Part shown: positions 2,251-61,306 of the stretch, piece after piece
Position numbering within the stretch: position 1 is the stretch's first letter
Layout: the number at the start of each line of letters is the position of its first letter
Origin: Eledone cirrhosa
Lineage: Eukaryota
Length of the DNA stretch: 64,000 nucleotides
NCBI GenBank assembly: GCA_964016885.1
Contig: OZ024740.1
Location: forward strand, 78,492,001 to 78,556,000
Direction of reading: 5' to 3'
The notes under the pieces: model-generated
What the model was told of the DNA's origin: nothing
Seen by the model: only the letters and a program-made list of their open reading frames with translations
Database searches by the model: none
Program-made: the position numbers and the translations under genes

Positions 2251-3198
2251 CGAGTGCCTACAGGCGCTCACAGCCCTCTACCAAGCGGAAACAGCAATCA
2301 GCGGGGACTCCACTTTGACACTCTATACGAGATTAGTGGAGGATAAGTGCGACGACGTTCTCGGGGAAACTCTAGGCATCGAGGAGGACGAACTGACCAG
2401 TCTGTTCGGGAGGACTTTCCGTCCAGGGCCTATGGATAACTTCCAGAGGTCTCTGGCCTGGCAGTGCTACCGAGGAGCTCTACTAGTTCGAGACAAAATC
2501 TACAGGCACGGACGCCCTGGCAGAGATCCTGCAAAAAGGACCTTTCCAAGATGCGCGTAGGACATCGAAACCGTTCTGCACGCAATTGTTCAGTGCCCAG
2601 GGGTGACCGACCTGTGGAATTATGTCGAACAGCTGCTGTCACGTGTGGGACGCATCCAGTCGTCAGCCGAGTCCATCGTGAGGATCCCCCTGCCGCCTTC
2701 ATTTAAAAACGAAGGAGAGGCGGTTTTCCTCTGTCTGGTGGCTATGGCGAAAGAGGTAATATGGTGGACGAGGTTCAAAGGACTGAGGGCAAACACCTTT
2801 CTCTCCGGACAACAACTTATCCCCTTCTTTAAGTATCACTTCAGAAGGAAGGTGAGAGTGGAGAGAGAGGTGCTACACCCCAGTAATTCGCTGAAAGGTG
2901 GGTGAATGTGGTGAAAATGGCCCGAGTGAATGGGCCTTCTCTGTATATAAACCTGTAGGTTGAGGAAGATAAACAGAGGGAAGACAGGAACACCTACAAA
3001 ATGTGTTCCTGGTGTTGAGGGTTGTTCTATCCACGGGGTGTAAAACAACCCTGCAGTAACGTTCCCCCCTATTGGGATTTCAATTGTTATTTTATTATAT
3101 ATAGTTTATTGTTATTTATTAATGTTAAAGTTATTTTTATGTAAAACCTCCGTCTTGTAATGTCCCATTTTTGTACGCCCCTGTGGCAAATAAAGAAA
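2251..3198 (+). mobile_element. 5'-truncated Tx1-type LINE (ORF2 C-terminus plus 3' UTR) in (TATC)n
   Basis: Translates as ...MDNFQRSLAWQCYRGAL...ETVLHAIVQC...AMAKEVIWWTR with a stop; near-identical to 59003-59960; ends gtggcaaataaagaaa; ctatct repeats on both sides. Confidence 0.9.
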
Positions 3199-3457
3199 GC
3201 TATCTATCTATCTATTTATCTATCTATCTTTCTTTTCTCCATTCTTTCCTTATTATCATGGAGTAAAGACGATAGCTTTACCAACACAACCGTCACGTTC
3301 AGTCTAAAATGAAAAGTAAAATCTTTAAAATTCCAATTTTAATATATTTTCTTAAAAATGTAGCTATTATTGTCAATTTTCAATGCTGCTATCAGCTTTT
3401 TCAGGCAAATACATATAGCTTATCACAGTTTTACTGCTACTTCCTGTCTCCATTTAA

Positions 3458-3701
3458 CCCATATGATACCAAATCACCTAAAACCGGCTCTGTTTCTATG
3501 ATACTAAACTGTTTGTTTATTTATCTAAAAACTTTCCCTCCTAATTTTATATAAGAACATTTGTTAAATTATGCTTCAAACATCAACTAAATAACGATAA
3601 AATTAGTTATGTTACTAAATTCTTCCAAATCGTTGAATATTTTCAAAATTATTTAAAAATCATAGTCAGTGTATTTCATTAGAAATATGGTCATGAAAGG
3701 G
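3458..3701. mobile_element. piggyBac-like MITE
   Basis: TTAA|ccc...ggg|TTAA; imperfect TIRs cccatatgatacca / tggtcatgaaaggg. Confidence 0.55.
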
Positions 3702-3799
3702 TTAAAATTTTTCTTTTCTTTATCACCCCGGGTCGATATTTTGGATATATTGCTTTAAAATTTCGATAATCTTCAAATCAATTATACATAAACATATTA

Positions 3800-4225
3800 T
3801 GTCAACTATATTTTACACAAAAAAGTTATACAATCAAAGTTATACAATGAAAAGTTATACAAAATTAAATAATGAAAAGAGGAGGAAGGGGTAAAGAAGG
3901 GCAGTTCTGGCTGATGGGGGAAGTAGAGGAAAGACTTATAAATGCCATGAATAAGAGGAAAAAGGGGGAAAAAGCAAGGACTATTGGCCACGGAAGAAAG
4001 GGAAAAGAAAGAGGTGGGGGGGGGGGGTTTCGGCTGCGCCCCGCGGACAAAACTACAAAGGCATTTCTGTGGACAATGGTCAGCGACACCCGCTGCAACA
4101 GCCAACCCACCTCGCGGGTCTCCTTCCTCAGACGGGCTGCTGGCGTTCCGATTTTACGGAGGAACTCGACAGTACGGAGTCCGAGGACGCCTGAGGTCTT
4201 GACGTCGAATGTTAATTTGCTCAGA
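3800..4225 (-). mobile_element. 3' fragment of a CRE-type (RLE) non-LTR retrotransposon
   Basis: FDVKTSGVLG...KIG...REVGWLLQRVSLTIVHRNAFVVLSAGRS fits the CRE C-terminal pattern AVETxGxxG...FLxQRISxAIxRGNA. Confidence 0.7.
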
Positions 4226-6645: not shown

Positions 6646-7259
6646 ATATGTATATACACACACACATATATACACACACACATGCCAACACGCACACACA
6701 CACACATATTTATACAATATATTCTATAGCTATATATATATAAAACAATGTACATGCGTATATGTGTGTGTGCTTGCATGCGTATGAGTAGCTACGTGTT
6801 TCCAATACGTACATATGCAGACATACATACACATACATACACAGAGAGAAATATCTGCAATATCGCTAACCTTACTGGCTCTAAACACTGTGTTGGGATG
6901 CACACCGCTAACTATAAGTACAGGGGAATAACAGTTGCTACGTCAGCTCAAGTGTTTCTTGCCCAGCTCCGCACCGAAATAGACTGCACTGGGGAGAGAA
7001 CACAACCTGTACAGTTTCATCACTGCATGTTGGAGTGTGTAGCATGGTCGTTAGCTAGATAGAGACATAGTATTAAACTAGGAAAATGGATCTATCTGAA
7101 CCGAACCTCGACGTTCAGTCGACTATCTGTGTTTTATAGGACTGTTTGGTTACGGCAGACTTGGAGCTACAACAACAACAACAATATCGCAAACAATACC
7201 ACTAACACCAGCCACCCAAATCAACAGCTCCATCAGAAATACAATCACCATCATATCGC

Positions 7260-8065
7260 ATAACTACAACAACAAAAACAACTGTAACAATACCACAGCC
7301 AATACTACCAATAGTTCCACCACAAACACAACCACCCCCATACCTCACAACAACCAAATCAACTAACAATACCACAGCCAATACTACCAATAGTTCCAAC
7401 ACAAACACAACCACCCCCATACCTCACAACAACCAAATCAACTGCTACAACAACAACAACAACAGCTCCACCACTAACTCAACACCACCACCATATCTCA
7501 CAACTACAATACTACAACCAATACCACCAACAGCTGCACCACCATACCTCACAACAACAAAAACAACTGCTACAACAACAACAATAACAGCTCCGCGACT
7601 AACTCAACACCACCACCATATCTCACAACTACAATACTACAACCAATACCACCAACAGCTGCACCACCATACCTCACAACAACAAAAACAACTGCTATAA
7701 CAACAACAACAACAACAGCTCCACCACTAACTCAACACCACCACCATATCTCACAACTACAATACTACAACCAATACCACCAACAGTTCCACCACCAAAC
7801 CTCACAACAACAAAGACAACTGCTATAACAACAACAACAGCTCCACCACTAACTCAACACCACCACCATATCTCACAACTACAATACTACAACCAATACC
7901 ACCAACAGTTCCACCACCAAACCTCACAACAACAAAGACAACTGCTATAACAACAACAACAGCTCCACCACTAACTCAACACCACCACCATATCTCACAA
8001 CTACAATACTACAACCAATACCACCAACAGCTGCACCACAAACACAACCACCACCACATCTCACT
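7260..8065. repeat. ACA/ACC-rich tandem repeat, unit about 122-127 bp
   Basis: ctccaccactaactcaacacc recurs, e.g. at 7841 and 7963 (122 bp apart). Confidence 0.85.
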
Positions 8066-8549
8066 ACATTATCTCTCCAAATGATTTGACATAGTGAAAA
8101 CAAGGAGGCTACAAAGTAGACATAACCTGATTGTCATTCAGTTTCATGACAGGTAACAATCTTAGTGTCTCTGCTTCCCTACTCTTGTTGTCATTTTTGG
8201 TCGTGGCTAAATAGAGACTCCTTGCTATCAAAAACGAGTGGTTGGGATTGTTGGATTTTTTTATGCGTGCATGGAGGAACTTTAGAATAGACTATAGATT
8301 TTTGTATATTTTAAAGGGGCCATGTATGTGTATGTGTGCGAGATTATATGTATTTGTTTGTGATGAACAATAGGCACTGTTGTTCTCCTCATTTTACATA
8401 AGTAGCTATAAGTTACCATATATATATAAGTTACCCATATATATATATAGTAATAGTAATAAATGTGAAGACTAAAATCCAAAGAGGGATCGATAAGGAT
8501 AAATATATATATCAAATATACAAGAGTCCTAGAGCAAATATTTATTAAA

Positions 8550-9483: not shown

Positions 9484-9523
<40 letters not shown>

Positions 9524-9704
9524 AGTATGAATTCCTACGTGTAAAAAATACATATAGGGAAACAAGTATTATCCAACCGTATGCCAATGTGGTTCTATGG
9601 CGGGTTAATAAATTAACAAGCCAGAACATATAAAAACAAGGTCTAGCAAATAGAGAAAAAGTTTTAAAATAAATTTTAAAAAATTCTCAGTACTTACCAT
9701 ATGT

Positions 9705-9786
9705 GCCTTTACCGCGGTTTCATGCTCCAGAATAAACGGAAAATCCAAGCGGACTTCCATTGAGAAGGGAGCAATCTTCAGGAGGC
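9705..9786 (-). ncRNA. Type I hammerhead ribozyme motif with intact core and long stem II
   Basis: gcctc CTGAAGA t tgctcc...ggagca t GAAAC cgcg GTA aaggc. Confidence 0.75.
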
Positions 9787-10191
9787 TCTTCTCCCTCGGA
9801 GAATATAAAATTCCCGAGTTCAAATCACAAACTGACGCCATACGAAATGAGAGCGAAATGAGAGCGAATGATGAAAGAAATAATTATGTATGGTGCCGTG
9901 TGCAAAGACAAATGGCAGGGTGGACAGGTCAATATCCTGCCACTAGAAATAGCAGCAGTTCAAACGGCCAAAATGTTATCTCTACCTTAGGGGGAGATCA
10001 ATAATAATAAAGTATGAATTCCTACGTGTAAAAAAATACATATAGGGAAACAAGTATTATCCAACCGTATGCCAATGTGGTTCTATGGCGGGTTAATAAA
10101 TTAACAAGCCAGAACATATAAAATCAAGGTCTAGCAAATAGAGAAAAGTTTTAAAATAAATTTTAAAAAATTTGCAGTACTTACTATATGT

Positions 10192-10272
10192 GCCTTTACC
10201 GCGGTACATGCTCCAGAATAAACGGAAAATCCAAGCGGATTTCCATTGAGAAGGGAGCAATCTTCAGAAGGC
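10192..10272 (-). ncRNA. Second hammerhead copy, core damaged (GAAAC to GTAC)
   Basis: gcctt CTGAAGA t tgctcc...ggagca t GTAC cgcg GTA aaggc. Confidence 0.55.
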
Positions 10273-11340
10273 TCTTATCCCTCGGAGAATATAAAATTCC
10301 CGAGTTCAAATCACAAACTGACGCCATACAAAACCATTCCGAAATGAGAGCGAATGATGAAAGAAATAATTCTGTCTGGTGCCGTGTGCAAAGACATATA
10401 GTAAGTACTGCGTTTTTTTTAAATTTATTTAAAAACTTTTTCTCTATTTGCTAGACCTTGATTTTATATGTTCTGGCTTGTTAATTCATTAACCCGCCAT
10501 AGAACCACATTGGCATACGGTTGGATAATACTTGTTTCCCTATATGTATTTTTTACACGTAGGAATTCATACTTTATTATTATTGATCTCCCCCCTAAGG
10601 TAGAGATAAAATTTAGGCCGTTTGGACTACTGCTATTTCTAGTGGCAGGACATTGATCTGTCCACCCTGCCTTTTGTCTTTGCACACGGCACAATATATA
10701 ATCGCTGAATTTATATTTGTATTAATCTCCCGAGTCTTACAATTAACCTGTTAATAATTCTATTGACAGATTAATTGCATAAGTTTATTTTAAAACTACT
10801 CGGTTGAGTGCTTATTCGATTTGTGCTATTTATGCAATTTTTTGCATGATTTCACATCCTGAATTCATTTGCCAAAATCTGGGATTTTCCCCTTGTGACG
10901 CATGTGCTTTTACAAAGCCCTGCGTCATTCACAAAGTTGGCGCAGAGCAAAATACCTGTTGATAACGTGATATTCCTTGTTCGATCATTATACCAAAAGC
11001 TTATAGTTTTAAGCAGACAGTATTATTGATTTAGGTGTGATAGAAACCCTGCATTTGGAATTTACCATCAATTCCAATGGGTCCAGGTCGGTTATATATG
11101 TGTATATGTATATATATATGATTTTATCATTTATTTTGTTTGACCTGTTTAGCTTGACTTGTTTTTTGGTTTAGGTGGTTAATGCCTTCTTGGCCACGTT
11201 TTCAGTTTTGTATGGCGTTTTAACATATATTGTTTAGCTCTGGTTTTTTAACTATGGAGCGCTTGACAGCATAACTCTGATTTTGAGATTCGTTTCGCTT
11301 TTTCTACCCGCCGAAATGCGATTCCCCCTGAATTTATATT

Positions 11341-12745: not shown

Positions 12746-13079
12746 GTCTTTTTCAAGCGTTAAACTAATATATTTCTTCCATGTACTGTGCCGTTTGTTT
12801 TGTTATTTTTATTATTATTTTTACTTATATCTATATCTATCTATCTATCTATCTATCTATTTATCTATCTATCTATCTTGATAGAGTGAGACACGCTTCA
12901 CATCGGCTCTGCTATTCTATCGGAATTTACCCTTACTATAGTAAGTACCAGTGAATTTTTTCAGTGCAACACATTTGGAACACTTACCCCTGTTATTTAG
13001 GGAAACATTTTTACATTTACCCCCTTTTTAGGGGGTAAAATAAATAACTATTTTTCTGTAAAACTTCTTTCTTGGACGC

Positions 13080-14763
13080 ATGGCGGGAAAGATGGCAGAC
13101 ATGGCTGCCATTAACTCTGCCACGCCCCCCAAGTCTGAAGAACAAAAAATGGATACAACAAAACTAGACAACGAAACAAACAAGGAAAATGAAAAAACAA
13201 ATGTTACGGAAAATGAGCAAACGGAAAACAAACAAACAGAAAATAAGAATACAAAAAACAACAAGGCAACTTTCGCCCAGACAACAAAAAATCTATAATA
13301 TATACACCTATTGACTTGACTGCCGCCAGAGAAAAACTGGCAGAAGCAAAAAAGCACATAGTCTTGGGGGAGAACGGAATGTTTTCCATTAATCCCCCCC
13401 CCCCCCCCATAATTTAAGAAAACGAGACTAGAAAACACTGTTCTGTTTAGAACAATTCTAAACCACACGAGAAAGCCAGCACAGCCCAGCCAAATGGAGA
13501 TAGAGTTGGTCCTAAAAGACTATATGAAGAATATTCTCTTCATACGAAAGGACCGACTCTATGGCAGCATTTCTGTTTTAACAAAAGACAAGGAAACTGC
13601 ACAGAGGCTTTCCCTAAGCCCACTCTCATCAACAGCATACAGTTTCTATCCCTCCTACATGGGTAGAACTCAGAGAGTCAAAATACAGACAATGCTGCCC
13701 ACAATGGACTTCTGGTGGGCTATTGCTGGCTTCATAGACATGGGCGAGGACACAGTGCTGTCAATGGGGAAGGCATCTGGAGATGCGTTCCTGGGAATGG
13801 GCGTCGACCTACTAGTCCAAATGAGGCCCGAAAGAATAGCGCAAATCCCGGATCGCATCTGGCTGGATGACCTCACCCCAATATATATAATTGTAGAGGG
13901 GAGAAGACCAGCATGCTATTCATGCATGGAAAGGGGACACGTTAAGGCTAACTGCCCGAATCGTATCCCCCAAAAAGGACTATTGCCCACACCCACCACA
14001 AACAGTACACCAACACCACCCACCTCCAAAAATACACTAATACCACATACAGCAAACAAAATACAGACACCACCAACCACAAGCACAACACAAACATCAC
14101 CACCACCAGCACCAAACACAAGCACGACACAAAAATCACCACCACCATCACCATCACCAACCACAACACAAACATCACCACCACCATCACCAACCACAAG
14201 CACGACACAAACATCACCACCACCACCACAAAACACATTCCAAACTAATAATAAAAAAAAACAGCAACAAATCTACCCCTCCCGCAAAAAAATAACAACC
14301 AGACACCACGTCCCTCCCACCTAGCGCTGAAGAGTTTCCCCCAACTTCTGAAGAAGAAGGAGGAGAAGCCTTCAGACAAGTTAAAAGAAAAAAACGAAAG
14401 CACACACCCAGCACACCACAACAACAAATAACTCACACACAAACACCAACTCCAATCAAAAACACCCCACCCTCGACGAACAAAAATAAATCTGCGCCTC
14501 CCCTCTTCGAAACATTGACAGCATCACAAAAAAAGACTTTGCAATACACATATATAAATAAAGAAAACAAAAAACTGTTTAAATTAATAAACAATAACCC
14601 TTTGGTGCAGACCGAAGGGCCAAACTTTATCTCAACAGAGAACTTCACCCATTTAAAAATGATAAAGGTCCCTCTGGACCTTTATCGTTCCTTAAAAGAA
14701 CAATTTAAAACCGTTAAATCGCGTCCTCTTGAAAGATTTCCCCATAACCTCCCCTCTCCCTGA
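13080..14763 (+). pseudogene. Tx1 ORF1 (gag-like, CCHC knuckle), frameshifted
   Basis: VEGRRPACYSCMERGHVKANCP knuckle and T/P-rich linker; homologous to the ORF1 at 32000-33718; frame breaks near A and C homopolymers. Confidence 0.8.
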
Positions 14764-14916
14764 CACAACTCCAAATACCTCAACCCCACCACACTCGGAT
14801 ACCCCCACACCACCACAAAACATCCCTCCACCCAACACACCCGACCCCATGGAAATTACACAACCCGGAGAGGTAGGTGCTTTTCTTTCTTCACTTTCAA
14901 CACCAAAATAGATCAA

Positions 14917-17806
14917 TTGAGAGTTGGCTGTTTGAATGCGCGTGGCCTGGGCTCAGCTTGGAAGCAAGCAAAGCTTCTAAGTGACCTCAGGTCACGAAGT
15001 ATAGATGTGATGGCTGTTTGCGAGAGTCGGATCAGCAGCGTGCGACAGCTGGCTCCCGCCTTCGATGACTTTGAGATGCACGCATCTCTCTGTCAACCCG
15101 GAGGCGGGGGTGGGGTTGCCGTACTGCTGGATAAACGTCTGGCTCTCGACGTACAGATTGTTCACTCGGACCCGGGGGGTCGATTACTGGTGCTGGACGT
15201 CGGAGGCGGTGAAGGCGGGGCTTTCAGACTGGTCGGTCTTTATGCCCCCTTCGGGGCTGAAAGAGCCGACTTCTTCCAGCGTATGGAGACTTTTCTAGGA
15301 ACGTCGCGTTCCCTGCTTTTAGTGGGGGACTGGAATGGAATCCTAGATGCGCGTTGGGACTATGCAGGGGCATGTCCCGATAGAGGGTGGTGTAGCAGCC
15401 TCAAGGGGTTACTCCATCGATTCGACCTGGTCGATAGATTTCGACTAGATTTTCCAACTGTGCCAACCTGGACCTGGGCAAACCGCAGTGGTCAATCTAG
15501 ATCGTACCTAGATAGGTTTTTGGTTAGGATTAAGGATAGGGACGTATTTAGTTGTCCAGAATTGCTCATGGTTGGCTATTCAGATCACAAAATAGTGACC
15601 TGCGTGGTCAACCTTGATAGAACGCATAGACAGGGTCCCGGTTACTGGAAGATGAACTTGTCCTTGCCGGCAAAGGAAGCTTACAGGAACCGGATTAGTA
15701 GCTTAGTTAAGATGCGGTTAACGGGAGCGATCGTCAACAGCAGGTGGTGGGTATCTCTAAAGAAAGAGATTAGAGTAAGTTCGATAGGTTACAGTAAGGA
15801 ACTAGCGGCAAATAGAAATAGGAGGGAAAGGGAGTTAACAGATAAACTAGAAGAGGTGATTAGGAGCGGAGACGTGACCAGAGTGTTAGCGGCGAGAACG
15901 GCGTTGAGCCAGTTCTTTGACGCGAAGCACGAAGGCTGCGTTGTCCGAAGTAAAATACGTGCTTTAGGAAACGAGGGGACCAAAGCTGTTAGCTGGGCCC
16001 GCGTGACAGAAGCCAAGAGTGGGATTAAATCCACCATTCGGTCTTTGCAAGACCAGGATGGACGGGTGATCCTTGAACCTGAGCGGATGTGCGAGGCCTT
16101 TCAAAGGCACTTTGCTCGACTGTTCGGAGGGGGCGGAGGGCCGGACGGGGAAGTGGACTTCGGTCCAACCTCGACGGTCTACCGCGTCTTTCGAGCGGCG
16201 AAGCGGAGTGCTGCGAAAGGCCAATCACAGCCACTGAAATCGGGGAAGCGCTCAGCCAATGCAGCAGACGCAAATCTCCGGGTCTCGATGGTCTACCATA
16301 CGAACTTTATTTAGCTATGCCGGTCTTGTTCTCCGAACTCCTCGAGGCTGTCTATTACAACTGGCAACAGAACGGGAGAATTCCCTGTTCTGTGACCAAG
16401 GGCGTAGTCACGCTAGTGAGGAAGGACGAGAGCAAGGGGGACGACTTAATTAACTTTAGGACCATAACTCTGCTGAATGCAGAGTTACAGATTTTGGCCA
16501 AGGTGTTGGCGAAGAGGTTGGCGCTTGTGGTGGGTGGTTTGGTGGGAGACGCGCAGACATGCACTATCCCGTCCAGGTCCATTCACGACAACCTCCACCT
16601 CATGCGATACATCGTAGAGAGGGTTGGGAACGAACCCGGCTTTGGTAGGGCCCTGATCAACTTGGATCAATCTAAGGCGTTCGATAGGGTCGACCATGGT
16701 TACCTGGATGCGGTGCTAGCGGCGGCGGGCTTCGGACCCGTTTTCAGGGGCTGGATTTCTGCCATGCACAGTGGCAACATCTACTCTAGGATTAAAGTAA
16801 ACGACTACCTCTCGGAGCCGTTTCAAATCACCCGGTCCATCAGACAGGGGTGCCCCCTCTCCTCCCTTCTGTACGTATTGACTCTCGAGCCACTGCTGCG
16901 GAAGTTGGAGTTGCTGCGGGGCATGCCCCTGGAACCGGGATTGCACAAAGCGGTCTCGGCCTATGCCGACGACGTAACAGTAATGGTGGCGGACGCCTCG
17001 GAAATCGGGGCGATCGCCACCCTACTGGAGGAATACGAAAGGCTGACGGGGGCTAGGCTGAACCGGGACAAGTCAGTCGGTTTGCAACTCGGAACGTGGA
17101 GGGGCAAACCGATGCCGTTAGACGGTGTCGTCGGGCGGTGGACGGAGGGCCCGGTGAAGCTGCTCGGGATCTGGTTCGGACCGGACCTCCAGGTGGAGAA
17201 GAATTGGGGCGAGGTGACGAGCAGGGTGTTTGCGCTGACCAAGAAGTGGGCCAAGTGCAAACTATCACTGAAAGGTCGGGCGGAGGTGACGAACGCTTAC
17301 ATAGCGTCCGTCATCTACTACCGCCTGACCGTCGTGCCTTGCCCCAAGGAAACGCTCACCATCATGGAGCGCATGCTCTTCCAGTTCCTCTGGAAGAAGC
17401 GGCCTCCCATGGTGAGGAGATCCATCTGCTGCCAGCACCCTTCGAAAGGAGGGCTGGGTATACCGTGGCTGTTGATGCGTAGGCACGCATTGAGGCTACG
17501 GCATCTACAGGTATTCCTCACCGGTCAGCCGGTGTGGGCCCCGTTTGTGAGGCGAGCCTTCCCACAGCTCGTCTCGCTCACCGAGCTGCAATGATGAAAG
17601 AGGTTGTGTGGTGGACGCGCCTGAAAAGTCTGAGGTCGGGTGACTTTCTCTCCGGCCAACACCTGGTTTACTTCTTCCGATACCACTTCGGAAGAAGGAT
17701 CAGGATGGAGAGAGAAGTGCTTGGCCCCAGACAGTTTTATGAAAGGTGGGTGAAAGAAGCGAGAATGGCTCGTGTAAATGGGCCTTCTCTCTATATTGTT
17801 CTGTAG
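14917..17806 (+). pseudogene. Tx1 ORF2 (APE endonuclease plus reverse transcriptase), with a frameshift near 16160 and an internal deletion near 17592
   Basis: CLNARGL, VGDWNG, SYLDRF, SDH (APE); SPGLDG, DQSKAFDRV, RQGCPLS, AYADD (RT). Confidence 0.92.
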
Positions 17807-18052
17807 GTGAAGAAGTGAAGAGGAAAGGGGGAGCGCCTCCTCTCTGGGCTTCCCCCGCGAAAAGAGTTGCACACTTTTCGGGGGTATGTGCAATCCCCAA
17901 CACGCCCCCTCCCTTTTGAGGACTTTTTATTATTATATTATTCTTATTGTTATGCCTTTTTCTTTACTCGCATTTATGTAAACTCCCCCCTGTGTATTTG
18001 TCCCTTTCTCTTGTGCCCTAGTGGCAAATAAAGAAATATATCTATCTATCTA

Positions 18053-18166
<114 letters not shown>

Positions 18167-20965: not shown

Positions 20966-21353
20966 ATGTATGTATGTATGTGGATGTTCAGCTAGCTAGT
21001 TAAAAAGACGACCGAGAGTTGTCGCGCTCCCCTAGCTTAATAGTCTAGAGCGCCTAGTCGGTATCTGGGAGATATGAGGTTCTACCCTTCCAAACTGCTT
21101 TTCACATCTTCACTGTATTTTATAAGCTATTTTATAGCATCTCTGAGCTTTGGCCCCCAAACAACGAACATTACTTACCACTTAAGTTTTTATACCAAGT
21201 GTTTCTTGATGTATTGTCTGGTACTTGGAACATAACTTAACAAAGATTCGTATTATATTTAGAAGTAACCAAACTAATTACAAACCAGTATCCAACGTGT
21301 CTATGAAACAAAAATATTATCCAGGGTGATAAAAAATGGACAATTTCTAGTAA

Positions 21354-23323: not shown

Positions 23324-23354
<31 letters not shown>

Positions 23355-26011: not shown

Positions 26012-26414
26012 CGTGTCTAATATATTATTGTCGTTAAGCCAGAGATCAGCACGGATCAAACATGTTCAGGATCAAAGGCATTTCAATCTTGATCGGCCAA
26101 TTGTTTTCTATATTTAGCTGTTATTTCTAGCTAGTAGAACGACCACAAAGAGGCTTCCTTGTCAACACGATTTATTTTGTTTGGATTAATGCAGAGGTTT
26201 TCAAATCTTTTGTGCCACCGGCCCCCTCACAGCCATGTAATACCCTCAACGCCCCTTGCCCCTATTTCCAGAGAGACCTACCTACACGCAAATTGTAAAT
26301 AATATATAATAAATAAAATCGCTAATTTATATATAATAAATAATATAATATATACTATCTATAAGTAATATAATATATATACTTTTTATTTCACTATATT
26401 TATATATAATGGTT

Positions 26415-35369: not shown

Positions 35370-35406
<37 letters not shown>

Positions 35407-35411
35407 TATTA

Positions 35412-35444
<33 letters not shown>

Positions 35445-45964: not shown

Positions 45965-46444
45965 GGTTTCAATTTAGGCAAAAAGCCAGCAATTTGTGGG
46001 CAGTGGAAAGTCGATTATATCGACTACACTAGTACTTTATTTTATTGAATCTGGAAGGATAAAAGGCAAAAGGCCAACACTTTGGAGAAGTGAGAAATAT
46101 ATCAACCTCAATATTTAGCTGGTATTTCATTTTATCGACCTCGGAAGGATGAAAGGCAAAATTGATTTTAGCTGGATATGAGCTCAAAACGCGGAGAGCC
46201 AGAAGGTAATAATAAAAATAATAATTGTTTCTACTATAGGCACAAGGCCAGCAATTTGAAAGGGAGAGGAAAGTCGATTAAATCGACCCCTATTCATTAC
46301 TGGTACTTTATTTTATCGACCCCGTAAGGATGAAAGGCAAAGTTAACCTCGACGAGATTTGAACTCAGAATGTAAAGGGTCATAACTCCATACTTGCTTG
46401 CAAAGCATCGTATCTGACACTCTACAGATACTGCCAAACCACCG

Positions 46445-46445
<1 letters not shown>
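45965..46445 (-). mobile_element. Cluster of three major-family SINE copies/fragments
   Basis: gaaggat.aaaggcaaa core repeated at about 46055, 46145 and 46328. Confidence 0.75.
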
Positions 46446-46491
<46 letters not shown>

Positions 46492-49400
46492 TTTCTTTAT
46501 TAACCACAAGGGTTTACATAAAGTAGACATTAAGGACAGTACAGGACAATACAGGGCGGTACAAATGGGCATTTCTGCGTGTAAAAAAAACAAGAAACAG
46601 AGGATGTAATAATAGAACAATGAAAAAAATTCCCCAATAGGGGGGAGACTTCCGAGGGACATTGGTGGAGAAAGCCCATTAAAAAGCCACAGTGACCCTG
46701 ACCACCAGGGCAAGTGCCCTCTCCCAGTTTTCCACCTTTAATTTACAGACACATACTCAGAGTAGGCCCATTCACTCGAGCCATACTTGCTTCTATCACC
46801 CATCTTTCAACAAAATGCTGGGAAGAGAGCACTTCCCTTTCTACCCTGATTTTCCTTTTCAAATGAAATTTGAAAAAGTTAATCAGGGCATCACCGAAGA
46901 GGTAAGTGCTCGTCTTCAGCCCTTTCAAACGTGTCCACCATACTATCTCTTTCGCCATGGCCACCAGACAGATAAAAACTGCTTGCCCTTCCCGGCTAAA
47001 GGAAGAGGGCGGGGCAATCCTCACGATGGACTCAGCTGATAGCTGGATCCGTCCCACACGCGACAGCAGGTGTTCTACATAAACCCACAAGTCAGCAATG
47101 CTCGGACACTGGACGAGTGCGTGCAGGACGGTTTCGTCGCCCTGCGCGCATCTCGGACATGCCCGGCTGACGGCACCTCCATGCCTGTAGAGTTTATCCC
47201 GAACTGGCAAAGCTCCTCGGTAGCACTGCCAGGCCAGGGATTTCTGGAAGTTGTCCATAGGCCCCGGCCCGAAAGTTCTTTCGAAGAGATTGGCTAGTTG
47301 ATTTTCGTCGACGCCTTGAGTTTCCCCAAGTACGTCGTCGCTCTTCCCCTCCACTAATCCTCTATAGAACACCAAGGCGGAGTTTCCACCGATCACATTG
47401 CCCGATTGGTCGAGGGCTGTGAGCGCCTGAAAACATTCCAGTCTCCAAGCGCTCCCTCTCGATCTTCGCTTGACCCAGGACTGCAACTCCGTCAAGGAGA
47501 CGAGCTGGAGAAAGACGTGTCTAGCAAACGGAGACCACACCTGATCACCGTCGAGGAAGAGGTGGAGATGTCGTAGCCTGAGCACGTGTCTGCGCATCAT
47601 CAGCCACGGCATTCCCAGCCCTCCACGTAGCGGGTGTTGACAGCAGATGGACCGCCTGACCATCGGAGCGCGTCCCTTCCACAAAAAGCGAAAGAGCAAA
47701 CGCTCCAGCGCAGTCAGGCGGGGCTTAGGACAAGGTACGACGGTCAGGCGGTAGTAGATGACGGACGCGATGTACGCGTTAGCCACCTCCGCTCGACCTT
47801 TCAGGGATAGCTTCCTCTCGGCCCATTTCTGGGTGAGAGAAGCCACCCTGCTCGTCACCTCGTCCCAGTTTTTGTCCGTCTGGAGGTCTGGACCGAACCA
47901 GACCCCGAGCAATTTAACTGGTCCGTCCGTCCAGCGCCCGACGACGTTGTTGGACGGCATGGACCTGCCTCTCCAGGTGCCGAGCTGCAGGCCCACTGAC
48001 TTTTCCTGGTTGATCATTGCTCCTGTCACCGCTTCGTATTCTCTTAGTGTAGTGCCGATCGCCTCGATGTGTTTGGCGTTCGACACCACTACGGTGACAT
48101 CGTCCGCATATGCTGACACGGATCTTCCGCATCCAGGTTCGCGCGGTACCCTCCTCAACGTCTCCAGTTCGTGCACTAATGGCTCGAGAGTCAATACGTA
48201 CAATAGGGACGAGAGGGGACATCCTTGGCGGACCGAGCGCATGATGTTGAACGGTTCCGAAAGGTGACCGTTCACTCTCACCACAGAGGAGATGTCGCTG
48301 TGCATGGCAGCGATCCAGCCTCTGAAGACGGGCCCAAAGCCAGCCGCCCTCAGGACTGCCGCTAGGTAACGATGGTCGACCCTATCGAAAGCTTTCGACT
48401 GATCTAAATTGATCAAGGACCCACCCGTGCCAGGTTCCCTAGCTACCCTCTCTACGATGTATCGCATGAGGTGGAGGTTGTCGTGGATAGATCTGTCGGG
48501 AACGGCGCATGTCTGCGCCTCTCCCACCAGACCACCAACGACAAGCGCCAACCTCTTTGCTAGCACCTTCGCCAAAATCTCGAACTCTGTGTTTAGCAGA
48601 GTTATGGGCCTAAAATTATCTATGTTATCCCCCGTGTTCGGATCCTTTCTCAGCAGCGCCACAGTTCCTCGGCTCACAGAGCTGGGAATTCTCCCGTTCT
48701 GTTGCCAGTTGCAGTAGACGTCCGCCAAGAGGCCTCCGAACAAGTCTGGCATCTGTACGTAAAGTTCATAGGGCAGACCATCCAAACCAGGCGATTTACC
48801 CCTTGTGCAGCTAGTCATTGCCTCCCGTACTTCAGCGGCTGTTATCGGCTTTTCGCAACACTCCGCCTCAGTGGCCGAGAGCCGCGGCAGTCCGTCGAGG
48901 TAGACACTAAAGTCCATCCCTCGATCCGGCCCGCCGCTTCCCCCGAACAACTGAGCGAAGTGTCGCTGAAAAGCTTCACACATTTGCCCGGGATCGAGTA
49001 GCATGCGCTCGTCGTGGTCCACCAAAGACCGGATCGTGGCTTTGTTGCCACGATGCGCCTCCGCCACTCGGGCCCATTGGACGGCTTTCGTCCCCTCGTG
49101 TCTGAGAGCACGCACCCTAGCTCTGACAACGCAGCCTTCGTGCTTTGCATTGAAGAATTTGTCAAGGGCCAATTTCGCCGCAAGTACGTCGGTCGCGATG
49201 CCTTTGCTAAGCGCCTCGTCTAATTTTCTAACTAATTCTCCCTCTGCTCTATTTTTCTCTATTGCTAAAGCCTTACTAAACCTAATGGACTCTATTCTAA
49301 TTGCTCTTTTCAGAAACCACCACTTGTTGACGATGGCCCCCGTCAACGCCTGCTTAACTAGTTCGCTAATCCGGTCTCTGTAGGCCTTGCGCGCTGGTAA

Positions 49401-49840
49401 GGACGCATTTAGCTTCCAGTAGCCGGGTCCTCGTCTATGAAGCCTATCTAAGTCAAGTACACAGATCACGAATTTGTGCTCCGTGTAGCTGACTATCTTG
49501 AATTGTGGACAGCCTATGCTAGACCTATCTATTTCTCTACAAAATACTCTATCTATATATGATCTGGATGACCCTATGCGATTTGTCCAAGTCCACATTG
49601 GCACATTCGGGAAATCCAATCGGTACCTGTCAGACAGTTCAAAACGCCTGAGCAGGTTGGTCAGGCTCTTGCACCCTCCTCCCCTATCCGCTAATCCCAC
49701 ACAGTCCCAGCGTGCATCTAAGATCCCGTTCCAGTCGCCCACTAACACTAAAGAGCGCGACGCTCCAAGAAAGGTCTCCAAAAGCCGGAAGAAATCAGGC
49801 CCCCCTGCTCCTGTCGGGGCATAGACGGCCACTAGCCGAT
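46492..49840 (-). mobile_element. 5'-truncated Tx1-type LINE flanked by (AAT)n on both sides
   Basis: 3' end gtggttaataaagaaatc then (att)n; aat array at 49863-49890. Confidence 0.9.
46743..49832 (-). CDS. Tx1 ORF2, uninterrupted but missing the N-terminal ~100 aa of APE (APE-RT-CCHC)
   Basis: VGDWNG, SYIDR, DQSKAFDRV, RQGCPLS, AYADD, CPRCAQGDETVLHALVQC. Confidence 0.9.
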   Translation of the reverse strand: MAVYAPTGAGGPDFFRLLETFLGASRSLVLVGDWNGILDARWDCVGLADRGGGCKSLTNLLRRFELSDRYRLDFPNVPMWTWTNRIGSSRSYIDRVFCREIDRSSIGCPQFKIVSYTEHKFVICVLDLDRLHRRGPGYWKLNASLPARKAYRDRISELVKQALTGAIVNKWWFLKRAIRIESIRFSKALAIEKNRAEGELVRKLDEALSKGIATDVLAAKLALDKFFNAKHEGCVVRARVRALRHEGTKAVQWARVAEAHRGNKATIRSLVDHDERMLLDPGQMCEAFQRHFAQLFGGSGGPDRGMDFSVYLDGLPRLSATEAECCEKPITAAEVREAMTSCTRGKSPGLDGLPYELYVQMPDLFGGLLADVYCNWQQNGRIPSSVSRGTVALLRKDPNTGDNIDNFRPITLLNTEFEILAKVLAKRLALVVGGLVGEAQTCAVPDRSIHDNLHLMRYIVERVAREPGTGGSLINLDQSKAFDRVDHRYLAAVLRAAGFGPVFRGWIAAMHSDISSVVRVNGHLSEPFNIMRSVRQGCPLSSLLYVLTLEPLVHELETLRRVPREPGCGRSVSAYADDVTVVVSNAKHIEAIGTTLREYEAVTGAMINQEKSVGLQLGTWRGRSMPSNNVVGRWTDGPVKLLGVWFGPDLQTDKNWDEVTSRVASLTQKWAERKLSLKGRAEVANAYIASVIYYRLTVVPCPKPRLTALERLLFRFLWKGRAPMVRRSICCQHPLRGGLGMPWLMMRRHVLRLRHLHLFLDGDQVWSPFARHVFLQLVSLTELQSWVKRRSRGSAWRLECFQALTALDQSGNVIGGNSALVFYRGLVEGKSDDVLGETQGVDENQLANLFERTFGPGPMDNFQKSLAWQCYRGALPVRDKLYRHGGAVSRACPRCAQGDETVLHALVQCPSIADLWVYVEHLLSRVGRIQLSAESIVRIAPPSSFSREGQAVFICLVAMAKEIVWWTRLKGLKTSTYLFGDALINFFKFHLKRKIRVEREVLSSQHFVERWVIEASMARVNGPTLSMCL

Positions 49841-50509
49841 ACGATTTACTACGTAGGTCGCCAATAATAATAATAATAATAATAATAATAATTACAATGC
49901 CAATAATAATATTAATGGTGTAGATATTTTATCTTTTACCTCCTTGGGGAGAAAAGGCTTCAAACTCCCCCACCACCACCACCACCACCACCACCACACA
50001 CAAAAGAAAAACGCAAACAAAACAACAACAACAATAACAACAGCATGCAACAATAAATCGTTGCGAGCTTAAACGCCTTAAACATTAACAGCCACAACAA
50101 AAACAAGAACAAAAATAGTGTTTGGCTGTGATTTTTTTAGTTGGAAGCAATATTTAACCCTGTCTATTTTTCTCTTCTGATGGAACTTCCCCTAACCATT
50201 GATGAATTAAAATACGATAATTAAAACGTTGTTAGCAATGCACCGAGTGGCCTCGTGAGAGAACATCTGATGGTAATTCACCCATATCTACATAGAAATG
50301 TTTGGATAATTATGGTGCCAATATTATTAAATTTTAGTCATCATGAGAAATGAATGGTATAGTTTACTTATATATTTATATGTGTGTATGTGCCTGTGTG
50401 TGTGGGTGTGAGTGTATAAATATATGTATATATATATGTGTGTGTATGTATATATATATGTACATATATATATATATATATATATGTACATATATATATA
50501 TATATGTAC

Positions 50510-53377: not shown

Positions 53378-53822
53378 GGGCGGTGAATTGGCAGTATCGG
53401 TAGGAGGCTGGACGCCATGCTTTCTAGCATAGTTACATCCCATTACGGTCTGAGTTCAAATCCCGTCGAGGTTAACTTTGCCTTTCATCCTTACGGGTTG
53501 ATAAATAAAGTACCAGTAATGTACTGGGCTAATTGCTGGCCTTGTGCCAAAAGTAGAAACAGTTATTATATAGGAGTGTGTTATAGTTGGTGCAATGTAA
53601 GGATATCATGTCTTGCAGTATTTAGTTACATTAGAGCACCTGGAAAATTCTTAGCAGTATATGTTTCGGCACTTTACGTTCTGAGTTCGGATCTCAGCAA
53701 GGGTAACTTTGCCGTTCAACCTTCCATGGTGGACAATATGTAGCACCAGTCAAGTACTGGGGTCGATTTAATCGACTTTCTCTTTAGCCAAAATTTTCTG
53801 GCCTTAAACCTAAATTAGAAAT
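53378..53822 (+). mobile_element. Two major-family SINEs
   Basis: ggcggtgaattggcagtatcggtag head; ctgagttc...actttgcc.ttca cores. Confidence 0.75.
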
Positions 53823-53892
53823 CAGTATTTAGTAACATTTGGCTTCAAATCCCACCATGCTTAAGTATGTATGTGTGCGATCGCGCGCGCGC

Positions 53893-54204
53893 GTATGTAT
53901 GTATGTATGTATGTATGTATGTATGTATGTATGTATGTATGTATGTATGTATGTATGTATGTATGTATGTATGTATGTATGTATGTATGTATGTATGTAT
54001 GTATGTATGTATGTATGTATGTATGTATGTATGTATGTATGTATGTATGTATGTATGTATGTATGTATGTATGTATGTATGTATGTATGTATGTATGTAT
54101 GTATGTATGTATGTATGTATGTATGTATGTATGTATGTATGTATGTATGTATGTATGTATGTATGTATGTATGTATGTATGTATGTATGTATGTATGTAT
54201 GTAT
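53893..54204. repeat. Pure (ATGT)n microsatellite, about 310 bp
   Basis: Seen directly. Confidence 0.95.
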
Positions 54205-54344
54205 GTGTGCGTGTGTGTGTGTGTGTATACGAGGTATGTCAAAAAAGAAACAGGACTGGGGGTCGCAAAAAGAAAACTTCCATTTGTGTGTGTATATATA
54301 TATATATATACATATCTCTCTCTCTATCTATCTCTCCCTATATA

Positions 54345-54377
<33 letters not shown>

Positions 54378-54519
54378 GTACCTTCATATACGTATTTATA
54401 TATGTCGTAACAAAACATGCCAAAACAAGACATACATGACAAAGTCTAGCGGGAATTCTCTGTTGTTGTGACGACGTGCCTCGACAATTGACGAAACCCA
54501 ACCATGCCAGTATTATTTT

Positions 54520-55190
54520 ATTCAAATCCCGCCGAGGTTAACTTTGCCTTTCATCCTTACGGAGTCGATAAAATAAACCACCAGTAAGTACTGGAGTCGA
54601 TTTAATCGACTTTTCCCTCCTCATCAAATTGCTGGTCTTGTGCCTAAAATAGAAACAATTATTTTATTTCAATATTTTAGTTCGGCAGCGTCGGACGCCA
54701 TACTTTGACGTATAGAGTTCAAATCCCGCCGAGGTTGACTTTAGCCTTTCATCCTTACGGGGTCGATAAAATAAAGTACCAGTAATGTACTGAGTAATTG
54801 CTGGCCTTGTGCCAAAAGTAGAAACAATTATTTTAGTTGGTTTGGATTGGCAGTGTCGGTAGAGAGTCGGACGCCATGCTTTGAAGCATAGAGTTGCGTC
54901 TCTTTATGATCTGAGTTCAAATCTCGCGGAGGTTAATTTTGCCTTTCATCCTTACGCGGTCGATAAAATAAAGTACCAGTAATGCATTGGTTAATTGCTG
55001 GCCTTGTGCCAAAAAGTAGAAACAATTATTATTAATGGCCTTTTATGTTCTGAGTTCAAATCCCGCCGAGATTAACTTTGCCTTTTATCCTTAGGGGTCG
55101 ATAAAAAAAGTGCCAGTCGCGCACTGGGTCGATTTAATCGACTTTCCTCCTCCCCCCAAATTTCTGGTCTTGTGTCTATATTAGAAACCA
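54520..55190 (+). mobile_element. Tandem cluster of four major-family SINE copies
   Basis: ttcaaatc.cgc.gag core at about 54521, 54718, 54916 and 55055, each ending tagaaac.attatt. Confidence 0.85.
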
Positions 55191-55437
55191 TTATTTTAGT
55201 TAGTTTCAGGCGCTCGACTGCGGCAATGCTGGAGCACGGCTTTAATGTTTGTTTCAGTTTTGTTATTTGTTTTGTTTTTTAAGGGGAAATCTTAAAAGAT
55301 TATTTTTTGAAAATAAAAATTCAAACGAAAGACACAGAACTCCAGAGTTTTCAGCCTTTGAGGTGGACTTCGAGTACTACCAACGGCACTGCTGGTCCTA
55401 CTGGGGTCACAATGTCTGACACAAGCCAAAACGCTGT

Positions 55438-57249: not shown

Positions 57250-57662
57250 GCATGCACTAAAACACGCACACACATACACACAGACACGAACTCACACACA
57301 CATATACATATATGCAAATAGATAGTTAGACAGATAGATGGACAGACAGATAGACCTACAGACAGATAGATAGATAGATGACTGTAAGTAAACAGAAATT
57401 AATATTTATGTAGAGCGTATATAAATTGATATGCACTCATAAAATCACATCCAGTTGTACACAATGACCTACAGACAGACAGATTGACAGTCAGACAGAG
57501 CTATAGACTGAGAGATAGATAGAGAGGGGGGGGGGGGGAGATAAACTGCTAGAGAGAGAAGGGAAGAGAGAGAGATAGAGAGGGAGAGAGAGGTGGAAGG
57601 GATTTGTATACGGACATTCCAAAAGACTGACAAACGGACATACAGATAGATAGATATATATG

Positions 57663-58683
57663 TTTCTTTATTAGCCACAGGGGCACAAAAGAAGGGGACA
57701 AATACAAAGAGGGAAGTTTACATACAATAAAAACGTGTAAAATACTATCACAAATGCAATTTAAAAATTAATCGATTTTCCCCAATTGGGGGAGACATTT
57801 CATATGGGTAACAAATACCCCCGAAAAAAATGTGCAACCCTCACCTCCAGGAGTACGAAGAGTTTGTACCTCTTTCCTCTCTTCCTCTTTTTCCTCAACC
57901 TACAGGCTGATATAGAGAGAAGGCCCATTCACTCGGGCCATTCTCGCCACTTTCACCCACCTATCATAAAACTTGCTGGGGTACAGCACCTCTCTCTCTA
58001 TCCTGATTCTTCTTCCAAAGTGGTATTTGAAAAAAAGATCAGTTGTTGGCCGGAGATAAAGGTGTCTGACCTCAGCCCTTTTAACCACGTCCACCATACA
58101 ACCTCTTTCGCCATAGCTATCACACAGAGGAAAACCACCTCTCCTTCGTTTTTGAAGGAGGGAGGCGGTTTGATCATGACAATGGACTCGGTGGTCAACC
58201 GAATTGGTCCCACCCGCGACAATAGTCGTTCTACATAGCCCCACAAGTCGGTAACACCCTGGCAGTGTATGAATGCGTGCACGACGGTTTCTTTGTCTCG
58301 TACGCATCTCGGACAGATCTTTTTGGAAGGGTCCCTGCCCAGGCGTCCATGTCTGTAGAGCTTGTCTCGAACTGGTAGAGCTCCTCGGTAGCACAGCCAG
58401 GCCAGGAACTTTTGGAAGTTGTCCATCGGTCCTGGGCTGAAGGTCCTACCGAACAGACTGGCCAGTTCGTCTTCCTCTACGCCTAGAGTTTCTCCGAGCG
58501 CGCCGTCGCACTTGCTGCGGATCAACCCTCTATAGAATGACGAAGTGGAGTCTCCACTGATCGCCGGGTCCGCCTGCCAGAGGGCTGTGAGCACCTGAGC
58601 ACATTCGATGTGCCAGTCGCCCATTTACTCGGTCTTTGCTTGACCCAGGACTGCAGCTCGGTCAGCGAGACGAGTCGTGGGAA
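57663..58683 (-). mobile_element. 5'-truncated Tx1 copy (stack member 1)
   Basis: LVSLTELQSWVK...CPRCVRDKETVVHAFIHC; 3' end gtggctaataaagaaa then tatct repeats. Confidence 0.9.
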
Positions 58684-58713
58684 GATAGATAGATAAATAA
58701 ATAGATAGATATA

Positions 58714-58967
58714 TTTTTTTATTTGCCACAAGGTCGCACAAGAAAAGGGGACAATACAGGACAAATGCCGGAGATTTTACATACAATCGTGTAAAAAATA
58801 CATTTTCAACAAACAAATTTAACAATCGAAATCCCCAATAGTGGGGAGGCGTTACAAATGGGTTGTTTAATACCCCGTAGATAGAACAACCTCCAACTGC
58901 AGGAGCATGTTGTGCAAGTGCTCCTTTCTTCCTTTTGCTCTCTTCTTCAACCTACAGGTTTGTATAC
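58714..58967 (-). mobile_element. Tx1 3' UTR-only copy (stack member 2)
   Basis: aacctgtaggttgaagaag...ctattggggatttc...gtggcaaataaaaaaa, between GATA tracts. Confidence 0.85.
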
Positions 58968-59002
58968 AGACAGACAAATAAATAGATAGATAGATAGATA
59001 TC

Positions 59003-61306
59003 TTTCTTTATTTGCCACAGGGGCGTACAAAAATAGGATATTACAAGACGTGACGGCGGAGGTTTTACATAAAAATAACTTTAACATTAATAAATAACAA
59101 TAAACTATATATGATAAAATAACAATTGAAATCCCCAATAGAGGGTACGTTACTGCAGGGTTATTTTACACCCCGTGGATAGAACAACCCTCAACACCAG
59201 GAACACGTTTTGTAGGTGTTCCCGTCTTCCCTCTGTTTATTTTCCTCAACCTACAGATTTATATACAGAGAAGGCCCATTCATTCAGGCTATTTTCGCCA
59301 CATTCACCCACCTTTCAGCGAATTTACTGGGGTGTAGCACCTCTCTCTCCATTCTCACCTCCTTCTGAAGTGATACTTAAAGAAGGGGATAAGTTGTTGT
59401 CCGGAGAGAAAGGTGTTTGCCCTCAGTCCTTTTAACCGCGTCTACCATATTACCTCTTTCGCCATAGCCACCAGACAGAGCAAAACCGCCTCTCCTTCAC
59501 TCTTAAATGAAGGCGGTGTGTTGATCCTCACGATGTACTCGGCTGACAACTGGATGTGTCCCACATGTGACAGTAGCTGTTCGACATAATTCCACAGGTC
59601 GGTCACCCCTGGGCACTGAACAATTGCGTGCAGAACGGTTTCGATGTCCTGCTCGCATCTTCGACAGGTCCTTTTGGCAGGATCTCTGCCAGGGCGTCCG
59701 TGCCTGTAGATTTTGTCTCGAACTGGTAGAGCTCCTCGGTAGCACTGCCAGGCCAGAGACCTCTGGAAGTTATCCATAGGCCCTGGACGGAAAGTCCTCC
59801 CGAACAAACTGGTCAGTTCGTCCTCCTCGATGCCTAGAGTTTCCCCGAGAACGTCGTCGCACTTATCCTCCACTAATCTCCTATAGAGTGTCAAAGTGGA
59901 GTCTCCGCTGATTGCCGTTTCCGCTTGGTAGAGGGCTGTTTCCGCCTGAAGGCACTCGAGGTGCCAGGCACCCATTTTCGGTCTTCGCTTGACCCAGGAC
60001 TGCAGCTCTGTTAGTGAGACGAGTTGTGGAAGAGCTTGTCTCACAAACGACAGCCACACCGGTTCACCGGTCAGGAATACCTGGAGATGGCGTAGCCTCA
60101 GCGCGTGTTTGCGCAACATCAGCCACGGCATGCCCATTCCTCCGTTAGAAGGGTGTTGACAACAGATGGATCTCTTCACCAATGGAGCCTGTTTCTTCCA
60201 GAGGAACTTGAAGAGTAGGCATTCCATTTTGGTGAGGTATTCGCGGGGACAAGATGTCGGACGACCTTTCAAGGAGAGTTTGCACTCAGCCGACTTCTGG
60301 GTGAGTGCAAACACCTTCGCCGTGACCTCGTTCCAGTTCTTGTCCACCTGGAGGTCTGAACCAAACTAGACCCCGAGCAATTTCACCGGTCCTTCCGTCC
60401 AGCGTCCAACGACACTGTCGAAAGGCATGGGTTTGCCTCTCCATGTGCCGAGTTGCAAACCGACAGACTTGTTTGGGTTTAGTCTTGCTGTATTCCTGTA
60501 ATAGGTTGCCGATTACCCCTATTTCCGAGGTTTTCGACACCATTACGGCTATGTCGTCGGCATAGGCCGACGCTGCTTTCTGCAGTCCTGGTTCGATCGG
60601 GATGCCCTGCAACAGCTCCAACTTCCGCAGTAATGGCTCGAGAGTCAGTACATACAGAATGGAGGAGAGAGGGCATCCCTGACGGATGGAACGCGTGATT
60701 TGGAATGGCTCCGATAGGTAGCCATTCACCTTGACTGCCGAGCAGATGCTGGTGTGCATGGTAGCGATCCAGCCTCTGAAGGCGGGACCAAAGCCGGCCG
60801 CCTTGAGAACCACTTCAGAGTATTGATGGTCGACCCTATCAAATGCCTTAGACTGATCTAAATTGATCAGAGCCCCACAGAAGCCAGGTTTACACCCTAC
60901 CCTCTCTATGATGTATCGCATGAGGTGGAGGTTGTCGTGTATGGACCTGGTCGGGATTGCACACGTTTGCGCTTCCCCTACCAGGTTCTCGACGAAAAGC
61001 TCCAGCCTCGCTGCTAACACCTTGGCCAAAATCTTTAACTCTGGGTTGAGCAGAGTTATGAGCTGAAATTGCTTATCTCATCCCCCTTGTTCTCATCTTT
61101 CCTGATCAGCGTTACTACGCCTCTGCCTACTGCCAGTTGCAGTAGACCGCTTTGAGGACGCTAGAGAACAAGTCTGGCATGCCTATGTAAAACTCATAGG
61201 GTAGACCATCGAAACCGAGTGATTTGCGTTTCCCACAGTGGCCTAGGGTATCTTCTATTTCGCCCACTGTGATCGGCCTTTCGCAGCTCTCTGCATCTGT
61301 GCTCGA
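59003..61306 (-). mobile_element. 5'-truncated, disrupted Tx1 copy (stack member 3), same subfamily as 2251-3198
   Basis: RT motifs DQSKAFDRV, RQGCPLS, AYADD; CRRCEQDIETVLHAIVQC; GATA tracts on both sides. Confidence 0.92.

Follow-up and report, generated by a model that had tools for sequence, protein, structure and literature searches.

TATC/GATA microsatellites as probable insertion sites of a clade of Tx1-type long interspersed nuclear elements (LINEs) in Eledone cirrhosa, with a sister copy in an ATT array

A 64,000-nucleotide stretch of the Eledone cirrhosa genome (contig OZ024740.1 of assembly GCA_964016885.1, forward-strand positions 78,492,001 to 78,556,000; hereafter the window) holds copies of a Tx1-type LINE that abut TATC/GATA repeats, which raises the question whether these microsatellites are sites that the element enters, products of its own insertion or places where insertions happen to survive. 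Self-comparison and translated searches of the window recovered seven copies (A–G, Table 1) of one LINE lineage. The first-pass annotation had described six related copies of a lineage specific for TATC microsatellites, with a fixed junction register; copy G was absent from its list though sharing the 3′ motif. Its observation that six copies abut the repeat holds, since A–F all have TATC-type sequence directly 5′, and three positions that it listed (57663, 58714 and 59003) are the 3′ ends of D, E and F.

Directly 5′ of the six copies the sequence reads TCT in every case, as TATCT in A, B, C, D and F and as TGTCT in E, in agreement with the junctions first noted. The element ends in AATAAA(G/A)AAA and has no poly(A) tail; five 3′ ends read GTGG(C)(A/T)AATAAA(G/A)AAA, followed by a spacer and then TATCT, so that the common 3′ end proposed earlier stands for five of the six copies and fails for C, whose 3′ end is lost. 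The spacers are 2 nt long in A (GC), B (TA), E (TA) and F (GA) and 6 nt long in D (CATATA), and thus differ even within the subfamily formed by A and F. The 3′ pattern GTGGYWAATAAARAAA-N0-8-TATCTATCT fits five distinct 3′ ends and had no match in 100 shuffles. Perfect (AGAT) arrays of at least three units lie no more than 16 nt from 10 of the 12 ends of A–F, although such positions make up 0.94% of the window; the two ends off such arrays are the break of C and the 3′ end of E, which has a two-unit run only. Seen from the repeats, nine of the ten AGAT arrays in the window adjoin an element end, the sole unoccupied one being at 57364, and no element end was found at any of the window's 94 AT, AC or ACAT arrays (44, 38 and 12, respectively). 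TATC repeat flanks five of the six copies on both sides and all six on the 5′ side, and its strand relative to the element is constant across copies. Repeats lie 5′ of the truncated copies A and F, which are independent loci, and also 5′ of B and C, which supports the view that TATC is the target and not only a tail. Possible target duplications, as upper bounds within repeats, are at most 14 nt in A, 17 nt in B, 13 nt in D and 17 nt in F. The flanks of E have 25 nt in common with 2 mismatches, and interrupted (ATTT) patterns recur on both sides of it; the downstream TATC run of B passes into (CT)n.

Copies A and F are 93.6% alike and the remaining pairs only 67–78%, so that A/F, B, D and E represent at least four subfamilies, as had been proposed. 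Since F, E and D form one tandem array, the independent TATC loci number four rather than six. The whole F-E-D array stands between the two copies of a ~190-bp direct repeat, whose core has 42 identical nt; these copies are either a target duplication of unusual length or the outcome of an earlier tandem duplication. Copy C breaks off inside its endonuclease at a (TTC)57 run, and the remainder was not found in the window; it is cut off at 31200–31789 by a plus-strand sequence that has (AAG)57 at its end and is probably another element's tail.

In a tree of 15 sequences of the second open reading frame (ORF2), from which C and E were left out for lack of overlap, A, F, B and D formed a clade with ultrafast bootstrap (UFBoot) support of 100 and G fell outside it; the node between G and an unnamed relative received 45, with Argonauta outside both. 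Copy C grouped weakly with B (69) on 91 endonuclease residues, and the untranslated region (UTR) of E is 72–74% like that of A/F. The flank unit in the window is TATC in six of the seven copies and ATT in one, and to judge from this tree it tracks the phylogeny, the TATC-flanked clade excluding the ATT-flanked G. Because this sister copy sits in (ATT)n, the lineage as a whole is not specific for TATC, and the specificity first claimed belongs to a sub-clade. The window also carries a short interspersed repeat with more than 15 copies, likely a short interspersed nuclear element (26400–26610, 30093–30284, 46200–46446, 53380–55200, 62156–62349 and others), one copy of which lies directly beyond the downstream ATT array of G.

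The organization of the element is that of the L1 group, with an N-terminal APE endonuclease, a reverse transcriptase (RT) and a C-terminal zinc motif in ORF2 (Pfam Exo_endo_phos, RVT_1 and zf-RVT, the last carried by G and D) and a separate ORF1. A profile of 42 sequences found human L1 ORF2p as its best solved-structure match (E 1e-176; R2, E 6e-54). The closest named ORF2 relatives are from Argonauta hians (68% and 57% identity), with Acanthosepion pharaonis at 37–45%, in keeping with an octopod host. A metagenome protein scan, of which 80 of 484 relatives were kept, nearly all at 23–33% identity, supplied anchors for tree building. Six of the 40 anchors scanned with Rfam carry U2 small nuclear RNA (snRNA) sequence and two carry 5S rRNA sequence, two further relatives with 5S fragments were found by BLAST, and none of the 80 of 484 relatives contained a TATC/GATA array of at least four units. 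In one further contig (L021), whose Tx1 element falls with the 5S-flanked elements, positions 1–80 upstream of that element hold an apparent histone H2A start, which we take to be such by eye and which could reflect a possible insertion into a histone cluster. The RT tree comprised 46 sequences and 449 columns, including 21 loci drawn from the 80, as well as 22 proteins, picked for coverage or names, and was a fast tree with an RTE outgroup and without curated Tx1L, Keno or L1 sequences. It united B, G, Argonauta and Acanthosepion (SH-aLRT 100), with proteins from Oryzias, Takifugu and a turtle as sister clade (SH-aLRT 96.9; ~35–41% RT identity); U2-flanked elements joined at 93.5 and 5S-flanked elements at 91.3, and the lineage also nests with a protein named Transposon TX1. 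In an earlier FastTree run, support for the deep nodes was weak (0.18–0.41). The Tx1-type identity assigned at first is thus borne out by nesting among target-labelled anchors, and membership of the Tx1 clade appears well supported, though not formally fixed since both trees lack curated references.

Copy B is apparently full length, although both of its frames are damaged; in ORF2 there are frameshifts, and ~520 nt have been deleted internally near 17590. Its ORF1 carries a weak candidate for a CCHC zinc knuckle (PF00098, zf-CCHC; E 0.0048, under the curated cut-off), a motif found in ORF1 of the Tx1 clade, and no Pfam match was found in the scanned part of the ORF1 of C. The endonuclease of B, in which the catalytic motifs are intact, was modeled with a predicted local distance difference test (pLDDT) score of 94.8 and adopts the L1 endonuclease fold (template modeling, TM, score 0.84) at ~19% identity to human L1. 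Among the copies, G alone retains a long open frame for ORF2, of which 1040 aa were used, with a partial endonuclease, RT and zf-RVT, and the endonucleases of B and G are 61% identical over 135 shared residues. By analogy with L1, the stretch that separates the motif W-T-W from S-Y-x-D may be the targeting hairpin; this putative hairpin is ANRSGQSR in B but TNRIGSSR in G, so that three of eight residues differ. Work on Tx1L describes a role of the hairpin in target choice and an endonuclease that alone nicks its own target almost exclusively, while grafting Tx1L or R1 loops onto the distantly related L1 enzyme did not transfer specificity (PMC1950540).

The six junctions fall in one phase, which has a probability of ~0.001 if arrays broke at random phase. 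Of the 13 ends of TATC runs outside the 5′ junctions, 7 stop at ATCT, or 7 of 8 when five internal interruptions are removed, and three of those seven are the far ends of arrays downstream of elements. The common phase of the six junctions is thus real, but the case for a fixed enzymatic register is weaker than proposed at first, since natural ends of arrays stop in the same phase and the truncated junctions show 2–3 nt of microhomology. Junction microhomology is CT in A (against F), CT in D (against B), TCT in E (against A) and, in F, TCT against G and only T against B. All four truncated copies reach 2 nt or more with one reference or another (null probability 0.0009), and the null for three of the four is ~0.02 by hand arithmetic. 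Since CT and TC are about equally common in the element (6.5% and 6.1%), the supply of microhomology does not by itself set the phase. For L1, too, truncated 5′ ends with microhomology are reported (PMC2912911).

According to the above results, we consider it roughly 68% probable that Tx1-type LINE copies entered pre-existing TATC/GATA arrays (ATT in the sister) by endonuclease-nicked target-primed reverse transcription, the preferred unit likely depending on the subfamily. Guidance would probably come from the endonuclease, with help from RNA that reads through into the repeat. The nick would be made in the (AGAT)n strand by the endonuclease, a T^A step being its probable site, and RT would prime at the nick on the RNA 3′ end, the 2–6 extra bases arising perhaps from slippage or from short repeat read-through annealing to the target. 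A second nick ~13–17 nt on would leave the top-strand end ...TATCT, to which truncated cDNAs could be joined via the CT/TCT microhomology seen at the junctions, and duplication of 3–4 repeat units would restore the target on both sides. Since the target would be regenerated in this way, later copies could pile up in tandem, as we propose for F-E-D. Targeting gains support from the TATC association spanning subfamilies only 67–78% alike.

Nevertheless, several points weigh against targeted entry. The evidence comes from four independent TATC loci and one ATT locus in one window, no empty site was found, and occupancy of nine of the ten TATC arrays fits arrays seeded or lengthened by the element equally well. 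Target duplications inside repeats are upper bounds only, the register cannot be told from natural array ends (7 of 8), and for F the microhomology falls from 3 nt to 1 nt when B rather than G serves as the reference. At the 5′ junction of G, ~22–24 bases are unexplained, with no homology to relatives and no occurrence elsewhere in the window, and because G adjoins a short repeat, the ATT preference rests on one copy. A 63.5-kb paralog of the upstream flank of B was considered as an empty site and rejected, since it continues into (AT)n and is therefore not clean.

The site might instead be chosen by the RNA, which would read past AAUAAAGAAA into the repeat so that tail–target pairing picks the insertion point, a loose T^A step is all that the endonuclease requires and the lineage acquires another target once a master copy has inserted into a different repeat. 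Such tail guidance would suit the lack of a poly(A) tail, with the repeat beginning 2–6 nt after AATAAAGAAA, the out-of-phase A that precedes TATCT in four of the five TATC copies as if inherited, the loose Y-T/R pattern shared by the junctions TATCT/A, TGTCT/G and TATT/A, and the difference of only three in eight residues between the hairpins of B and G. We think it unlikely, since spacer bases vary inside one subfamily (GC in A, GA in F) and the Tx1L endonuclease alone almost exclusively nicks its target (PMC1950540). A broader form of the idea, in which an octopod Tx1 radiation retargets between microsatellites via the RNA 3′ repeat rather than by endonuclease change and seeds much of the octopus GATA landscape, seems distinctly improbable to us.

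The element could also make the microsatellites, entering at a short TATC match and adding a TATC tail, with duplication and slippage growing both arrays. The occupancy of nine in ten arrays would be expected in that case, the upstream array of A begins at the point where a different repeat ends abruptly, close to a TATC-like word, and RTE elements are said to generate microsatellites (PMC9115989). We give this little credence, as upstream arrays of 17–57 nt exceed the possible duplications, the interrupted (ATTT) patterns stand on both sides of E, and the array at 57364 is unoccupied. Passive accumulation, whereby unselective insertions survive in repeats, or a quirk of a window that is dense in microsatellites (261 tandem-repeat rows) and was picked for the pattern, would hardly account for ends that avoid the far commoner AT, AC and ACAT arrays, for the constant orientation of the repeat with respect to the element, or for a flank unit that appears to follow the tree; we regard it as barely credible.

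Table 1. Positions of element copies, adjoining arrays, coding regions and target-labelled relatives; numbers are window positions except for contig names.
Feature	Position	Strand	Description
Copy A	2251..3198	+	5′-truncated; holds ORF2 end and 3′ UTR
Copy A arrays	2233-2250 and 3200-3229		TATC
Copy B	12879..18036	+	apparently full length: 5′ UTR, ORF1, ORF2, 3′ UTR
Copy B arrays	12834-12878 and 18039-18059		TATC
B ORF1	13080..14763	+	broken by frameshifts; Thr/Pro-rich repeat; weak CCHC zinc knuckle
B APE endonuclease	14908..15630	+	motifs LNARG, CESR, GDWN, SYLDR, SDHK intact
B reverse transcriptase frame	16083..17594	+	RVT_1, E 4.8e-24
Copy C	33925..~31790	-	5′ end, ORF1, rearranged endonuclease start
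Copy C upstream array	33926-33984		(TATC)14; 3′ part of copy gone at (TTC)57, 31619-31789
Copy D	58682..57663	-	5′-truncated; last in tandem array F-E-D
Copy E	58967..58714	-	254 nt, essentially 3′ UTR; 5′ junction after TGTCT
Copy F	61305..59003	-	5′-truncated in RT, decayed; upstream TATC array 61306-61355
Copy G	49862..46492	-	sister subfamily; (ATT)n at 46446-46489 and 49863-49892
~190-bp direct repeat, copy 1	57473..57655		downstream of F-E-D array
~190-bp direct repeat, copy 2	61314..61506		upstream of F
U2-flanked metagenome contigs	L002, L009, L012, L013, L016, L019		Keno-like
5S-flanked metagenome contigs	L017, L024, L025, L026		Mutsu-like

Beyond the window, part of F is present in five of the eight listed sequencing runs. 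When four runs from three coded organisms were mapped on D-E-F, three sets of contigs (26,252, 54,540 and 3,571) and one of reads (152,362) were placed, and each run covered 30 of 30 bins; the family is abundant in these runs, depth not being a copy number. Three junctions were skipped as repeats in this mapping, and among the 24 of 5831 loose ends that were listed none lay at a 3′ junction, which is neutral on targeting. For the raw-read run, four of the six listed loose ends were compared and all four match G within 0–3 of 30 bases (one matches B slightly better), so that G-like copies appear common in that run. No match to an element-specific DNA pattern turned up in collections of metagenomes and genomes, a search with the RT frame of B recovered no relative in the genome contig collection, and the viral contig collection held nothing matching the element.

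Two RNA candidates near the element were rejected: a three-pair hairpin before AATAAA, with one compensatory change (G), one broken pair (E) and folds that are not significant (z -1.6 and -0.5), and a hammerhead-like CTGATGA...AAA word near 12716 (z -0.12, no Rfam match). Rfam and ARAGORN scans of the window gave no matches. Another LINE, which we take to be RTE-like, occupies 35100–39000 on the plus strand with an open 1245-codon frame (endonuclease, RT and C-terminal C2H2 fingers), apparently inside another repeat and followed by GT and ATT microsatellites. A 43-bp minisatellite (21353–22260, 21 copies, 95% match) precedes 3.4 kb of degenerate GT-rich satellite (22296–25748). A tandem repeat rich in Thr, Pro and Asn (7166–8068, 122-bp unit, 5 copies, open frame 7206–7700) is possibly an exon of a mucin-like gene, and nested direct and inverted repeats at 9513–10702 (94–96% identity) resemble a young foldback or miniature inverted-repeat transposable element cluster.

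Parallels to the TATC-flanked clade exist in Kibi and Koshi, for which Kojima and Fujiwara (2004) is reportedly the source study. These teleost Tx1-clade elements occupy (TC)n and (TTC)n, respectively (PMC4494074, PMC3812793), and the endonuclease is described as the main determinant of microsatellite targeting by Tx1 elements (PMC4494074, PMC3812793, PMC1950540). Both are likewise Tx1-clade APE LINEs in microsatellites with family-specific units, whereas here the unit is TATC (ATT in the sister) and the host a mollusc; no 5′ junction lies at the window's 8 AG or 2 AAG arrays, and only the secondary break of C adjoins (TTC)57. The lineage works like Kibi and Koshi without being placed in either family; judged by the RT tree, the Oryzias, Takifugu and turtle proteins may be their kin. 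Crocodilian Tx1 families, such as Tx1-1_Crp, prefer (TTCC)n or (TTTC)n, a family counting as target-specific when more than 20% of flanks are one repeat (PMC4494074). The tetranucleotide preference across several related families is likewise seen here, but, in a comparison by description only, the crocodilian units are pure pyrimidine rather than A-containing and the host differs.

Keno (U2 snRNA) and Mutsu, as the 5S rRNA Tx1 elements are named, belong to the same clade, and U2- and 5S-flanked relatives are among the best metagenome matches and bracket the lineage; they differ in having RNA-gene targets and in their ~28–31% identity. Dong (TAA), of the R4 clade, Waldo (ACAY), Mino (AC) and Togen (TG) are likewise non-long-terminal-repeat elements that target microsatellites, and Dong shares the TAA/ATT unit of G, but they fall in other clades, whereas G has an APE endonuclease and a Tx1-type RT. 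ACAY, AC, TC, TTC and TAA are the microsatellite targets listed in PMC3812793, and TG is that of Togen (PMC4640811). Human L1 ORF2p resembles the element in profile, endonuclease fold and 5′ microhomology at truncations (PMC2912911), and differs in its promiscuous site (TTTT/AA), its poly(A) tail and the low endonuclease identity.

A Tx1 element targeting TATC/GATA was not found in searches of the open-licence literature, subscription journals, Repbase and Dfam being outside that scope, and an earlier catalogue entry for the family is quite possible. The main text of PMC4494074 holds no 'GATA', 'TATC' or 'octopus', although its supplement may list further targets, the accessible parts of PMC8967140, PMC9115989, PMC5753468 and PMC8869645 hold nothing on such a target, and a text search for the 3′-end motifs gave two unrelated papers. 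For Octopus vulgaris, 80 L1-Tx1 families, 13 of them recently active, spanning 56 Mb are reported in PMC13282606, in whose accessible text the word 'target' does not occur and L1-Tx1 targets are unnamed.

Microsatellite targeting by Tx1 elements is not new as a concept; what appears to be new here is the repeat unit, the host group and a close sister with a different unit, which makes target choice testable. Site choice by microsatellite-targeting APE elements is described as poorly understood (PMC3812793). The B and G endonucleases, 61% identical and found in different repeats, are far closer to each other than the enzymes used for loop grafting, and could thus help to tell the preference of the enzyme apart from pairing by the RNA tail. 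With this finding, microsatellite targeting by Tx1 elements would come to include molluscs as hosts and units that contain A, and given the 56 Mb and 13 recently active families of L1-Tx1 in O. vulgaris, such targeting could shape where copies are located and disturb GATA microsatellite markers.

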